Part shown: one piece after another, positions 9,561 to 13,364 of the stretch
Numbering within the stretch: position 1 is the stretch's first letter
Layout: each line of letters opens with the position of its first letter
IMG/VR virus record: IMGVR_UViG_3300032331_000926
Coordinates: 1 to 34,131 of that record
Source: a virus
Reading direction: 5' to 3' (one strand)
DNA length: 34,131 nt
Made by a program: the position numbers and the translations under genes
Notes under the pieces: generated by a model
Databases searched by the model: none
Seen by the model: only the letters and a program-made list of their open reading frames with translations
What the model was told of the DNA's origin: nothing

Positions 9561-9746
9561 ATGTTTACAGTGGCTTATCATTCCAGGACTGACAAGGACG
9601 GCTGGCAGGAAATCTGCCGTCACCCTATCGACTCGCCAGAGTGGACTACCCAGGATCGAGCATTCATTTCTGAGATGGTCAAACAAGGCCAGATGGTCTT
9701 AACCTGCGGCTGGTCAATGTGGAACATTGTAAAGGGGGACGCATGA
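9561..9746 (+). CDS. Hypothetical protein, 61 aa
   Basis: ATG 9561 has GGGG 7 nt upstream (the track start at 9510 lacks an SD). ATGA overlap with the next gene. Confidence 0.5.
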   Translation: MFTVAYHSRTDKDGWQEICRHPIDSPEWTTQDRAFISEMVKQGQMVLTCGWSMWNIVKGDA

Positions 9747-9934
9747 AACCAGTAGAATTTCCACTATATGGCAGCTTTGATGCTGCCCGATCCCATGGAT
9801 GCTTTGTGTGCCTCGCGCCCCTGCCGGATGCGCCTATCCGAGATTTTAATTTTCCACCAGGCCGCGGGCAGTGGGCTATGCACTGCAAACAGTGTGGATG
9901 CTGGACATTTTTTGATGTTCGGGAGGCCGCATGA
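9743..9934 (+). CDS. Zinc-ribbon protein, 63 aa
   Basis: ATG 9743 overlaps the upstream TGA, with a GGGGG SD. CFVC...CKQCGC motifs. Confidence 0.55.
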   Translation: MKPVEFPLYGSFDAARSHGCFVCLAPLPDAPIRDFNFPPGRGQWAMHCKQCGCWTFFDVREAA

Positions 9935-10053
9935 GTCCCTGGCGCAGACAGGCATCCGACCTGCTAGGCTGGTTCGCCCTGCTCGCCCTAGCTGCCCTGC
10001 TAGGCGTGGGCTGCTGGCTAGCCGTTGTCCTTTTATTTGTGTTGGGGGGTTGA
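9931..10053 (+). CDS. 40-aa single-pass membrane peptide (not in ORF track)
   Basis: ATGA overlap with the upstream gene, with GGAGG 4 nt upstream. MSPWRRQASDLLGWFALLALAALLGVGCWLAVVLLFVLGG: a basic N-terminus followed by about 28 hydrophobic residues. Confidence 0.55.
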   Translation: MSPWRRQASDLLGWFALLALAALLGVGCWLAVVLLFVLGG

Positions 10054-10113
10054 CAGCCCCATGCGCTTGTGTGTTAGCATCCGTCCTGTCCGTGAGAAAA
10101 AACGGGCTTCCCT

Positions 10114-10189
10114 GTGGTGGGGTGACAAGAGAACAGAACCCTTTGATCTGGGTTTCGGTTGTGTCGAGTTTCTCTTGCTCACCACCACC
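10114..10189 (+). promoter_or_regulatory. Helix A: long-range stem that encloses the 5' arm of the terminator stem
   Basis: 10121-10133 (ggtgacaagagaa) pairs with 10170-10183 (13 WC bp, one bulged C178). The helix extends by 10114-10118 with 10184-10188 (5 bp after a GG bulge). Confidence 0.4.
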
Positions 10190-10225
10190 GCGACCGGAAG
10201 CCCAGATCAGAGGGTTTTTTCTTTT
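10139..10225 (+). terminator. Helix B plus U-tract: intrinsic-terminator-like element ending the first early module
   Basis: 10139-10158 pairs with 10194-10214: 18 contiguous bp including two G-U pairs (T43-G210, T53-G200), then 2 more bp past a bulge. TTTTTTCTTTT follows. The G-U pairs form only in plus-sense RNA. The loop is an unusually large 35 nt. Confidence 0.55.
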
Positions 10226-10507
10226 GGGCTGCACCATGATGGGCAATGCAAGCAACAGCGTCATGCGTGGAGAGTGCTACTGGTGGCTAGGTCTGCAACA
10301 GCACACAAATGGGCGGCGAAGATAGCACCCATGACCGAAAGGCTGTCGGGTGTCGTGGCTCCGTCGGAGGACGATTCAAGGACGCATCGGCTAGGCTAGG
10401 TGCGTCCACCATCAGAGGACTGTGTAATACGTAATAGGTAATGTGATATGTGTTAGTAGTAGTAGCATCATGTAGTAGATTTATCTTTTCACTTATAGGA
10501 GATCATC

Positions 10508-10801
10508 ATGCAAGAAAAATATTGTGTTAACTGCGCTTTCTGCCAGATCGACATCAACGATACCAACTTGAGCACCTGCCACCGTAGCATCACGCCCAAG
10601 CGCAATCCCGTCACGGGCGAGGTTGTGAAAGTGTGGTGCAAGACCGAGCGTATGTATGACGCGGGTTGCGGTGTTGATGGACGGCACTATGTCGAGATGA
10701 ACACCAAGAAGCCCTCTGAGGCCAAGGAAGCATTTGACCGTATGTTCCATGGTGATGGTGACTGGGATGTATTCGGTCGCAGCCTGAAGCAGGGGAGCTA
10801 A
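10508..10801 (+). CDS. Cys-rich hypothetical protein, 97 aa
   Basis: AGGAG lies 6 nt upstream. YCVNCAFCQ...STCH gives the C-x-N-C-x14-C-H pattern. Confidence 0.6.
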   Translation: MQEKYCVNCAFCQIDINDTNLSTCHRSITPKRNPVTGEVVKVWCKTERMYDAGCGVDGRHYVEMNTKKPSEAKEAFDRMFHGDGDWDVFGRSLKQGS

Positions 10802-10803
10802 CC

Positions 10804-11697
10804 ATGGCTGACTTTTCACCACAGGCACGGAACTCTGCAATATGGAGTGGCGATGCACGGCAGATCGCTGCCGGACGCGCTGCCGATGTATGGCTGACCA
10901 AGACAGGCGCACAAGAAATAGAAGATATATCGGACATTGAAGCCGTGCAATGGGGGCTGAGGCTGCAAGAGCCAATCGCCAGAGCAGTAGGAGATCGCCT
11001 CAAGGTTCGCCTCAAAGAACTGGACATTGAAGGTACGCACCTGACCTTACCCTGGATGCGCTCGCACTTCGATTTTGTCAGCGATGACAACAAGACATTG
11101 TTCGAGATCAAGAATTACAACCTACACGCTAGATCGAAATTCGGTGACGATGGTTCGCAGGATGTCCCCGCGGCTGACATGGCGCAGTGCATCCACGAAG
11201 CTGCGGTGTTTGGTGTCCAGGTTGTGAATCTGTGCGTGTTGTTCGGTGGTCAGGAACTGTGCATCTATCCCATCAATGTCGATGATGCGATGAAGCAACT
11301 GATGATCGACCAGGAGGCTACCCTATGGGCGCATATCCAGACCCGGACACAGCCAGAGGCCACGCACCCGGATGACCTGCGCCGTCTGTTCCGCAAGGAT
11401 GATGGCAGCTACAAGGTGGCCTCGCAAGAGGTGCAAGCCGCCTGCATGAAGCTGAAAGAGATCAAGCAGACGATCAAGCGCCTCGAGGAGCAGGAGGAGA
11501 TTCTCACCGGCATGGTGCAGAACTACATGGGTGAGACATCATTGATTCAGACGGTGGATGGTCACACCCTCGCCACCTGGAAGAAGGCTTCAGATGGTGA
11601 GCGATTCGATACCAAGCGCCTGAAGGCAGAGATGCCTGGCTTGTACGATCAATACAAGGTGACGAGCCTGGGAAGCAGGAGGTTTCTTGTTAAATGA
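10804..11697 (+). CDS. YqaJ/lambda-Exo-type recombination exonuclease
   Basis: N-terminus SAIWSGDARQIAAGRAADVWLTKTG...WGLRLQEPIA, and PD-(D/E)xK core HFDFVSDD...LFEIKN, followed by QCIHEA. This is typical of the YqaJ viral recombinase family. It sits next to an annealing-protein gene. Confidence 0.82.
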   Translation: MADFSPQARNSAIWSGDARQIAAGRAADVWLTKTGAQEIEDISDIEAVQWGLRLQEPIARAVGDRLKVRLKELDIEGTHLTLPWMRSHFDFVSDDNKTLFEIKNYNLHARSKFGDDGSQDVPAADMAQCIHEAAVFGVQVVNLCVLFGGQELCIYPINVDDAMKQLMIDQEATLWAHIQTRTQPEATHPDDLRRLFRKDDGSYKVASQEVQAACMKLKEIKQTIKRLEEQEEILTGMVQNYMGETSLIQTVDGHTLATWKKASDGERFDTKRLKAEMPGLYDQYKVTSLGSRRFLVK

Positions 11698-12391: not shown

Positions 12392-12474
12392 GTAAGATAG
12401 ACCTTGCAATCTATGTAATGGCTGCAAGTAGCATCATTGATACAATCCTTTCACTTATGGAGAAATTCAAATGA
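12388..12474 (+). CDS. Possible 28-aa hydrophobic peptide
   Basis: MSKIDLAIYVMAASSIIDTILSLMEKFK. ATGA overlaps at both ends (with 12230..12391 and with the annealing-protein gene). Could be fortuitous. Confidence 0.25.
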   Translation: MSKIDLAIYVMAASSIIDTILSLMEKFK

Positions 12475-13364
12475 GTAACGCATTGGTAACTATGGATGAC
12501 ATTAATTTCATGGGTAATGCAATCAGCAAGTCTGGGCTGTTCGGAATGAAAACACCCGACCAGGCTATCGCTCTCATGCTGATAGCCCAGGCCGAGGGAA
12601 TGCACCCTGCCATCGCAGCGCGTGACTACCATGTCATACAAGGCCGTCCAGCACTGAAGGCAGATGCAATGCTGGCGCGGTTTCAGACTGCTGGTGGCAA
12701 GGTCAACTGGGATGTCTATACGGATGCCGAAGTCAAGGCTACCTTCTCTCACCCGGCTGGTGGCAGCGTCACCCTGTCCTGGACGCTAGAACAGGCCAAG
12801 CGTATCGGCCTGGCAGGGAAAGACAACTGGAAGAACTATCCTCGCGCCATGCTCCGCGCCAGAGTCATCTCTGAGGGCATCAGGACGGTCTATCCGGGTT
12901 GCGTGGTGGGCGTGTATACGCCAGAGGAAGTGCAGGACTTTGACCAGCCCAAACAGCGCCCTATGCGCGACATGGGTGCGGTGGAGGTGGTAGAGGAAAC
13001 GCGGGAAGCGTTCATCGAGTCAGACGAACTGCCGCCAGCAGGGGTGGACATCTGGCCTCTGAATGTGCCTGGGCGCGACACCATGCAGTGCGCTGGCAAG
13101 GAAGAATGGGTGGAGGCGTTCCTGATGCTGGTGGGCAAGGTTGCCAATGCCAAGCTGACGGATGCCGAGAAACAGGCAAAGGTAGCGCAACTGCGCTCTG
13201 CCAACACCGCAGCATTCTCCCGGATGGGCATTCAAGCCAGCGCCGAAATCTACCGCCAAATCACTGAGATTCTGCCGCCGCCGGAGGTGGGCGCTGAAGG
13301 TGCAAAAAAGTGGGTGGAGGAATTCGACAAAGCGTTACAGGAACCCAGTGCGTCGCAATCCTAG
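12471..13364 (+). CDS. RecT-like single-strand annealing protein
   Basis: QAIALMLIAQAEGMHPAIAARDYHVIQGRPALKADAM and NWKNYPRAMLRARVISEGIRTVYP resemble RecT-family core motifs. It is paired with the YqaJ exonuclease. Called from memory, not from a search. Confidence 0.65.
   Translation: MSNALVTMDDINFMGNAISKSGLFGMKTPDQAIALMLIAQAEGMHPAIAARDYHVIQGRPALKADAMLARFQTAGGKVNWDVYTDAEVKATFSHPAGGSVTLSWTLEQAKRIGLAGKDNWKNYPRAMLRARVISEGIRTVYPGCVVGVYTPEEVQDFDQPKQRPMRDMGAVEVVEETREAFIESDELPPAGVDIWPLNVPGRDTMQCAGKEEWVEAFLMLVGKVANAKLTDAEKQAKVAQLRSANTAAFSRMGIQASAEIYRQITEILPPPEVGAEGAKKWVEEFDKALQEPSASQS

Follow-up and report, generated by a model that had tools for sequence, protein, structure and literature searches.

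A candidate promoter-proximal RNA switch built from two interleaved helices in the early operons of Betaproteobacteria phages

Introduction

Two long RNA helices, interleaved in their order along the strand and followed by a U-tract, lie at positions 10114-10225 of IMG/VR virus record IMGVR_UViG_3300032331_000926. The whole stretch of 34,131 nucleotides (nt) that was analyzed, hereafter the window, is a phage genome. An earlier note, made from the letters of the sequence, had drawn attention to this locus, and the question that it raises is whether the two helices are built together, as a pseudoknot, or exclude each other, as the competing folds of a terminator/antiterminator switch. The reading that we favor as probable, with some reserve, is that positions 10050-10225 constitute a self-contained promoter-proximal RNA switch (an attenuator) of the phage early operon.

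The element so delimited is larger than the stretch that was originally described, and consists of a conserved -35 box, a 5' terminal hairpin (P0), a small hairpin (D), a long hairpin (B) that is capped by a further hairpin (C), and the U-tract (Table 1). P0, hairpins D and C, the -35 box, an Rfam match at 10232 and the hypervariability of the arms were all absent from the earlier note.

Layout of the element

Both helices and the U-tract were located where the earlier note had placed them, and were recovered by reading, by an inverted-repeat search and by RNAduplex. Helix B pairs 10139-10158 with 10194-10214 through 18 contiguous pairs and two more, and its non-Watson-Crick pairs are both T opposite G; the inverted-repeat search gave its arms as 10137-10156 and 10197-10216 (20 nt, 90% Watson-Crick). 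Helix A pairs 10121-10133 with 10170-10183 and carries an outer extension, and the same search returned a perfect 10126-10133 / 10170-10177 with an outer extension at 10109-10120 / 10182-10193. According to RNAduplex, helix A and its extension form one helix of 18 base pairs (bp), 10116-10133 / 10170-10189, with two 1-nt bulges and an energy of -29.3 kcal/mol; given the GGTGG/CCACC repeats, the register of helix A in the earlier note is also possible. The first strand of this long-range helix is composed of the loop of D, the 3' arm of D and the single strand after D, while the second comprises the loop of C, the 3' arm of C and the bases right before the 3' arm of B.

The order of the arms is A5'-B5'-A3'-B3', which is that of an H-type pseudoknot, both in the window and in the two groups of relatives described below. 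The long-range helix and B (10139-10163 / 10189-10214) have at most one base in common (10189). The linkers between the arms measure ~5, 6 and 0 nt, and the stems ~18 and ~25 bp. Stem B ends at 10214 and is followed directly by the U-tract TTTTTTCTTTT, which together provide the G+C-rich stem and U-tract of an intrinsic terminator. In the minimum-free-energy fold, B is lengthened further by the pairing of AAGAGAA.AGAA with UUUUUUCUUUU. A consensus terminator scan picked out just the sub-hairpin 10196-10219.

Two additional complementarities occur in the window only, one between the loop of P0 (AGAAAAAAC, 10095-10103) and the U-tract (GTTTTTTCT, 10214-10222), and the other between GGGCTTCC (10104-10111) and GGAAGCCC in the 3' arm of B (10196-10203). 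Neither is conserved in the relatives, and both were kept outside the model; they are probably incidental, but could modulate B in this particular phage.

Compensatory change in both structures

Relatives of the element were gathered by pattern scans of viral contigs (with a pattern for the Rfam RNA and patterns for the element), metagenomes and genomes. Approximately 60 distinct relatives were obtained, which fall into two sequence-divergent groups and in which the interleaved order is the same throughout. Group 1, to which the window belongs, comprises 40 matches (24 distinct) to a covariance model built here, and group 2 comprises 23 distinct sequences of one subgroup (2a), plus others.

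In group 1, 90.7% of the cells of the terminator form (P0, D, B and C) are paired, and both-sided changes occur at 21 of its 39 pairs. The covariation of this form is 0.298, versus 0.142 in shuffles (none of 500 as high) and at most 0.08 in slid controls; the alignment was fitted to the local structure (P0, D, B and C), such that these counts are biased towards it. P0 is paired in all of the 24 distinct sequences and shows both-sided changes at two of its six pairs (CCGA/TCGG, CCGT/ACGG and CTGT/ACAG). The stem of hairpin D (99% of cells paired) and hairpin C (92%) each show such changes at three of four pairs, and helix B at 13 of 25. In group 2a, helix B is paired in 98.8% of cells, with both-sided changes at 7 of 22 pairs. 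The U-tract follows B immediately in every relative, and in group 2 it consists of T6-T8.

The competing pairing is similarly maintained. Its outer part, termed P1, in which the loop of D provides the 5' strand, is 88% paired in the group 1 alignment, which was not fitted to it, and its covariation is 0.238 versus 0.106 (0 of 500 shuffles). In a plain MAFFT alignment of the 23 distinct group 2a sequences, P1 is 98.6% paired with a covariation of 0.376 versus 0.120 (again 0 of 500; slid controls ≤0.06), and one of its pairs takes all four Watson-Crick types (UA in 8 sequences, AU in 7, GC in 4 and CG in 2). In both group 1 and group 2a the loop of D thus co-varies with the apex of B. Group 2 possesses the outer part alone, the loop of D pairing with the segment that precedes the 3' arm of B, and P1 is the only pairing of the long-range helix that is universal to both groups.

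The arms of helix A vary in length and register and are out of register in the MAFFT alignment of group 1, and this helix was therefore assessed by duplex energies and by permutation of partners. Across the family, the mean duplex energy is -25.9 kcal/mol when 5' domain and apex are cognate and -14.8 ± 1.0 when partners are permuted (none of 20000 permutations as good), and in almost every case the cognate partner is the best or is tied with near-identical relatives. For the window itself, the corresponding duplex reaches -27.8 kcal/mol, a value that none of 500 shuffles equalled (-13.4 ± 3.1). Both competing structures are therefore kept by compensatory change, in group 1 as well as in group 2a, and the two interleaved helices of the earlier note proved to be conserved features.

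Order of folding: switch or pseudoknot

The energies of the two structures, computed throughout from nested folds only, depend on how much of the RNA has been made. When the RNA ends before the 3' arm of B, the long-range helix is favored, at -37 to -44 kcal/mol, the local hairpins alone reaching -24 to -30. In the full-length RNA it is B that is favored, at -55 to -69 versus -37 to -45 kcal/mol. In a series of increasing lengths, it is only after 22-32 nt of the 3' arm of B that the long-range helix ceases to be the most stable fold, and in the window it holds out to the last base of that arm. Likewise, the long-range helix is present in the prefix fold of all 23 group 2a sequences and is lost in 22 of them after 12-23 nt of the arm. 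In silico, the alternative helix therefore forms first and is less stable than the finished terminator, as expected of an attenuator. Formation of the long-range pairing requires that D and C melt.

RNA stereochemistry renders the full coexistence of both helices implausible with such linkers: stems of ~18 and ~25 bp, separated by the short linkers given above, could not both form completely, and the two would thus exclude each other by topology. Moreover, RNA polymerase encloses the final 9-14 nt of its transcript, so that a helix formed beforehand should still hold when the polymerase is at the U-tract, and readthrough would be the default outcome. The earlier note had left the choice between a pseudoknot and mutually exclusive folds undecided; with the short linkers and the order of nascent folding, a terminator/antiterminator switch fits better than a static full pseudoknot.

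Promoter and transcription unit

The element appears to be a transcription unit of its own with a conserved promoter, whose activity is deduced from conserved sequence. In group 1, TTGACA is invariant and is followed, after a variable 17-nt spacer, by TACTGT, CATTCT or TAATGT, as seen in the alignment. Group 2 has TTGACA or TTGACT, 17 nt of spacer and then TACTAT or TAGAAT, positioned for a transcript start just 5' of hairpin D. The window and its closest relative (L029) carry an 11-nt insertion at the -10 region when compared with the other relatives, and a promoter scan of the window did not flag the -10 region of the element. Some loci have a terminator immediately 5' of the unit.

Hypervariable arms

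The segments that form the long-range helix are far more variable than the frame in which they are set. Mean pairwise identity falls from 0.96 (P0) and 0.92 (U-tract) to 0.73-0.77 in the arms of B and to only 0.53 and 0.57 in the 5' arm region and the apex, respectively. Backbones that are 97-100% identical bear arm regions that are merely 58-79% identical, and on such backbones the arm pairs differ from each other and yet remain mutually complementary (TGACATTAC/GTAATGTCA, AGATTGCGG/CCGCAATCT and ATGAGTGAGG/CCTCACTCAT). Loci L015 and L148, for example, are 97-100% identical in the 300 nt that precede the element, in its promoter, P0, D and B, and in the 200 nt after it, whereas their 5' arm regions are 56% and their apices 77% identical. 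In group 2a, the variable bases are exactly those of the loop of D together with their partners. About 20 distinct arm pairs were seen, to which the metagenome scan contributed few new classes.

This hypervariability is the pattern expected of a determinant of RNA-RNA specificity and suggests such a role. From it we infer that the arms may serve as an identity tag, the input being RNA of the same identity that acts in trans. A purely internal structural helix offers no reason for diversification of the arms. Other copies or targets of the variable arms were sought in the window, and none were found beyond chance. Pairing of the P4 type with the downstream RNA (the Betaproteobacteria-1 RNA described below) was considered and rejected, as a search of that RNA for complementary 7-mers gave no conserved site.

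In one group 2a locus (L212:9073-9185), the loop of D (GTGCGGGCA) and the apex (TGCCCGACAC) match imperfectly and give a bulged pairing. This variant may be a recombinant between two specificity classes.

Proposed mechanism and its alternatives

According to the switch reading, transcription would begin a few bases 5' of 10088. The nascent 5' domain (10116-10133) would capture the apex of B (10170-10189) immediately upon synthesis of the latter, and the resulting long-range helix would lock the 5' arm of B within a closed loop, such that its 3' arm would be late to zip. RNA polymerase would then pass the U-tract and go on to transcribe the Betaproteobacteria-1 RNA and the genes beyond. With the long-range helix blocked, D and C would fold locally, the 25-bp B would zip up to the U-tract, and termination at ~10225 would free a stable RNA of ~135 nt. 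Termination, readthrough and antitermination by topology are, in this sense, predictions of the fold model. The most economical candidate for the input is the terminated short RNA itself, whose apex would capture the 5' domain of new transcripts, and the outcome would be negative feedback of the copy-number or immunity type.

Action of the terminated RNA in trans, with class specificity, is a tentative proposal; it is drawn from the hypervariability and from the way in which B separates the two partners, each of them exposed in a loop or a single strand. An equally tentative view of the whole is that of an RNA-only, self-recognising immunity or copy-number device of Betaproteobacteria phages, with an origin independent of P4 and P1. 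In such a device, the ~135-nt RNA would keep its complementary halves apart on a rigid 25-bp rod and would capture nascent transcripts of the same identity, leading to termination, or else would form antiparallel homodimers. The pairs of loop and apex would then represent many orthogonal specificity classes, similar to heteroimmunity groups made of RNA.

Several points weigh against the switch reading. The two helices are nearly without common bases, so that their exclusion is a stereochemical argument; the sharing of nucleotides between an antiterminator and the terminator stem, which is typical of attenuators, was not found here (at most one base, 10189). A partial pseudoknot, composed of the long-range helix and the base of B, might also form and could terminate all the same. 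The linker of group 2, and that of the outer pairing in group 1, may perhaps let the loop of D reach the apex with B formed. With ~25 bp and a structured apex of 27-31 nt, B lies far beyond the textbook intrinsic terminator, a compact hairpin with a stem of ~5-14 bp and a loop of 3-8 nt. The promoter in the window is weak and has no good -10 region, which is the weakest point of the promoter call. No ligand, leader peptide or protein sensor was found, and there is no riboswitch or T-box match in Rfam at E ≤10. The terminated RNA holds both halves, and its molecules could pair mutually unless the 5' domain is processed off. Finally, the hypervariability could have arisen from mosaic recombination over a patch of ~90 nt; such recombination can shuffle arm pairs among phages, but leaves the maintenance of many types unexplained.

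The strongest alternative, although an unlikely one, is a static pseudoknotted small RNA of ~135 nt with a constitutive terminator, in which the loop of D docks on the apex of B, the target is in trans and readthrough is incidental. Small RNAs typically have just such an anatomy, with a promoter, a hairpin at the 5' end and a terminator whose U tail is long; the A-rich linker between D and B in group 2 (~7-14 nt) might just span the helix, and P1 alone is universal to both groups. In group 1, however, only 3-7 nt separate helix A from the base of a 25-bp helix with whose apex it pairs, a geometry in which full coexistence with B is implausible. The long-range pairing would, in addition, need D and C to be melted, and the energies are tuned such that B wins just when it is complete. 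Neither the window nor the downstream RNA offers the variable arms a further target, and a structural contact alone would leave their hypervariability unexplained.

Protein-dependent antitermination at a tR1-like site, with D or C as a boxB-like hairpin and with an N-like or other RNA-binding protein picking the fold, is improbable. The slot after a cro-type gene that the element occupies in relatives is the one in which phages lambda and P22 carry nutR-tR1, and small conserved hairpins do exist. The bases in the loop of D co-vary, however, with an RNA partner rather than with a protein. Moreover, there is no conserved boxA-like sequence (the match CGCTCTTT occurs in L029 only), and the cassette moves among phages with different neighbours, with no candidate protein travelling along with it.

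Evidence for a plus-sense RNA

The plus-strand fold of 10100-10230 reaches -62.9 kcal/mol (z = -5.06, none of 200 shuffles as good), while the minus-strand fold is weaker (z = -3.9). In the group 1 alignment, G-U pairs occupy ~110 of 871 pair cells (~13%), each of which would be an A-C mismatch on the other strand; this argues for RNA rather than a DNA cruciform. The data support selection of the element as plus-sense RNA, in agreement with what the earlier note had proposed from the two G-U pairs of helix B.

A DNA-level element, whether a cruciform, an origin of replication or packaging, or a recombination site in which inverted repeats are interleaved, is very improbable. Long near-perfect inverted repeats do also form in DNA, and the minus strand likewise folds better than its shuffles. 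The G-U pairs, the better fold of the plus strand, the matching orientation of U-tract and promoter, and a covariation that keeps pairing rather than sequence nonetheless all stand against it.

That the region is protein-coding (open reading frame (ORF) 10025/10061-10399 or overlapping ORFs), with helices by chance, is scarcely credible: the window does contain open frames of 124, 185 and 166 amino acids (aa), but all six frames carry stops over the homologous 360 nt in 17 of 22 relatives, the closest relative L029 included, the helices show compensatory substitutions, indels are not multiples of three, and an Rfam RNA family occupies 10232-10351. No frame stays open across the 22 relatives. 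The coding hypothesis was rejected on this account, since a conserved open frame with synonymous bias was looked for and not found; the protein-like conservation of ORF 10061-10399, which the earlier note had named as the finding that would speak against an RNA, is thus absent.

Genomic setting and portability

Table 1. Coordinates of the element and the adjoining RNA in the window
Feature	Position	Strand	Remarks
-35 box TTGACA of a sigma-70-type promoter (predicted)	10050-10055	+	overlaps the stop codon of small ORF 9931-10053
Candidate -10 region, weak	10073-10080	+	GTTAGC at 17-nt spacing or TAGCAT at 19 nt; read from sequence
P0, 5' terminal hairpin	10088-10107	+	6 bp, purine-rich loop GAGAAAAA
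Hairpin D	10109-10122	+	stem 10109-10112 / 10119-10122, loop TGTGGT; loop is the 5' strand of outer pairing P1
5' strand of long-range helix (P1 + A)	10116-10133	+	helix A plus extension
A-rich linker preceding B	10134-10138	+	able to pair with the U-tract
B5', 5' arm of long terminator hairpin	10139-10163	+	inverted-repeat search, covariation
Hairpin C at the apex of B	10166-10180	+	stem 10166-10169 / 10177-10180; loop TTCTCTT presents the core of the helix A 3' strand
3' strand of long-range helix (A3' + P1-3')	10170-10189	+	duplex energies
B3', 3' arm of long terminator hairpin	10189-10214	+	fold, covariation, inverted-repeat search
U-tract TTTTTTCTTTT	10215-10225	+	immediately after B in all relatives
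Betaproteobacteria-1 RNA (RF02932)	10232-10351	+	cmscan 75 bits (gathering score 49.4), E = 3e-12, full model
3' extension of Betaproteobacteria-1 RNA, outside the Rfam model	10352-10411	+	hairpins 10352-10375 and 10380-10407, then ACCA

The portal and terminase genes of the window are on the minus strand, and the plus strand carries a RecE-like exonuclease (10804-11697) and RecT (12471-13364). The match to the Betaproteobacteria-1 RNA begins 7 nt past the U-tract, and 10114-10225 lies wholly outside the model. In the window this RNA would be produced solely through readthrough of B, and it is best regarded as a neighbouring module rather than as part of the element. Among 50 viral loci that bear the RNA, ~19 have the element together with it and ~31 lack the element; conversely, some elements occur without the RNA. 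The scan of genomes yielded five genuine Betaproteobacteria-1 loci, all from Betaproteobacteria, and one contig from a Saccharibacteria bin, which bears both this RNA and a group 2 element.

Close as well as distant relatives retain the 3' extension of the Betaproteobacteria-1 RNA, with compensatory changes in its hairpins. The final hairpin is followed by ACCA or CACCA and recalls a tRNA-like minihelix or an RNase P substrate. There is no terminator after the extension, which implies that the RNA continues into the next gene. In four loci without the complex element (L004, L020, L033 and L039), a simple hairpin and T-tract is located ~60-100 nt upstream of the RNA, and a terminator in front of the Betaproteobacteria-1 RNA thus appears to be common even where there is no switch. 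In a different set of six viral contigs (L008, L009, L028, L035, L038 and L045), the RNA comes directly after a gene whose product ends in ...EDANDLH.RAG..., a conserved motif that resembles the C-terminus of a Toprim/primase and hints at a link between the RNA and a replication gene.

The earlier note had tentatively placed the element at the boundary between the first early module and the recombination module, and this assignment did not hold. In relatives, the element occurs right after a gene of the P22_Cro family (PF14549, E = 5.7e-18), and the genes after it, of early or replication type, differ, including a DUF1376 gene, a 221-aa ORF and small ORFs; in L080, L096 and L171 the DUF1376 gene follows the element directly, with no Rfam RNA between them. 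In the deposited phage that is closest by terminase (L204, MW202825.1; 81% aa identity, of comparable size), both the element and the Betaproteobacteria-1 RNA are absent; the cassette thus behaves as a mobile insert in early operons. A blastn search of 9700-10700 against deposited phages gave no match. With its own conserved promoter and varied downstream genes, the element appears from these sequence comparisons to be a portable gate rather than a feature of the recombination module.

In several loci (L072:3950-4180, L077:12762-12990, L112 and L150), other long non-coding stretches, of ~230 nt and ~370 nt, replace the Betaproteobacteria-1 RNA before the same downstream genes. None of these four has an Rfam match at the gathering score, and they may be interchangeable structured leader modules.

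Two kinds of small protein recur in the vicinity of the cassette. A strongly hydrophobic small ORF (~40 aa) ends in or beside the -35 box in the window (9931-10053) and in group 2 loci, being located just upstream of the element in L007, L013, L025, L027 and L040; in certain lineages, a gene for a short membrane peptide seems to accompany the cassette. A cysteine-rich small protein (CxxC...C...C, 83-102 aa) is encoded beside the cassette in several phages: at 10508-10801 in the window, as the first ORF after the RNA in L007, L025 and L027, and on the minus strand in L012 (6142-6450). The protein of the window has no match in Pfam or PHROG.

Implications

If the switch reading is true, the element would be a compact, portable, RNA-only gate on a phage early operon. 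Its mutual exclusion would be based on topology, a principle that is missing from textbook attenuators and that would be useful to synthetic biology, and the ~20 natural lock-and-key variants on one backbone would constitute a set of orthogonal terminator switches. It would, furthermore, point to heteroimmunity or copy-number sensing by RNA in phages of freshwater and soil Betaproteobacteria for which there is no laboratory model. The Betaproteobacteria-1 RNA, for its part, is common in phages and longer than its Rfam model, and would often be made just by readthrough of a regulated terminator.

Comparison with known systems

The earlier note could not assign the locus to any known RNA class, and database comparison bears this out: cmscan of 9900-10520 gave no Rfam family over 10114-10225 even at E ≤10. 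Assignment to an Rfam family was rejected, the only candidates being sub-threshold miRNA-like and Ms_IGR-7 matches (E 0.2-6), which are typical of any long hairpin. Full-text literature searches returned no description of the element, nor of the function of the Betaproteobacteria-1 RNA. The latter, a family that probably stems from the work of Weinberg et al. (2017; PMC5737381), the text of which does not mention it by name, is the immediate downstream neighbour, with the element outside its model, and each of the two modules occurs alone.

The element resembles the known attenuators (riboswitch expression platforms, trp-type leaders and T-boxes) in being a promoter-proximal leader in which a stem with a U-tract is set against an earlier helix and readthrough is thereby determined. 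It differs in that essentially no bases are shared and in that exclusion would be topological, with the alternative helix closing a loop around the 5' arm of the terminator. It also yielded no sign of an aptamer, a leader peptide or a site for tRNA binding, and its ~25-bp stem, structured apex and hypervariable arms set it apart.

The CI RNA of P4 (seqA/seqB/seqC), IsrK/STnc1160 of Gifsy-1 and the c4-type RNAs of P1 and N15 are similar in having a self-complementary leader on the same strand, in which RNA pairing governs premature termination. In these systems and in the element as proposed here, the short RNA derives from the very transcripts that it controls, and the layout is also alike, with a promoter, a short terminated RNA, a second structured RNA and then the genes. 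The P4 CI RNA is a precedent for RNA-controlled termination in a phage leader, and the terminated short isoform of IsrK acts on its own readthrough isoform (PMC4825925). Neither the C4 nor the IsrK family was listed, however, in the cmscan of 9900-10520 at E ≤10. The two partners in the element, the 5' domain and the apex, belong to a single hairpin unit and do not flank a processed RNA, no complementarity to the downstream Betaproteobacteria-1 RNA was found, and the hosts are Betaproteobacteria.

In the control of plasmid replication, pT181 and pIP501 employ antisense attenuation, and the activator pseudoknot of repZ in IncI-alpha/IncB plasmids is blocked by Inc RNA. These systems share with the element a loop that pairs with a distant strand in the "on" state and an RNA that captures the loop in the "off" state, and their loop bases, which set incompatibility specificity, likewise vary among relatives. 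Their inhibitor, in contrast, is a countertranscript of the opposite strand, whereas the partners in the element are on the same strand and no antisense promoter is evident; moreover, the repZ case controls translation rather than termination.

The nutR-tR1 region of lambda and putR of HK022 share with the relatives of the element the slot after a cro-type gene and before early or replication genes. The element has no conserved boxA (CGCTCTTTA-like) or boxB, a boxA-like string being present in L029 only upon inspection of the alignment, and no put-like double stem-loop was found. It has a terminator predicted to be intrinsic rather than Rho-dependent, and a promoter of its own.

Against this background, the element is best filed as a previously uncatalogued form of RNA-controlled transcription attenuation, the distinctive features of which are the proposed exclusion of two helices that have almost no base in common, the great length of the terminator and the structure at its apex, and the hypervariable lock-and-key arms.

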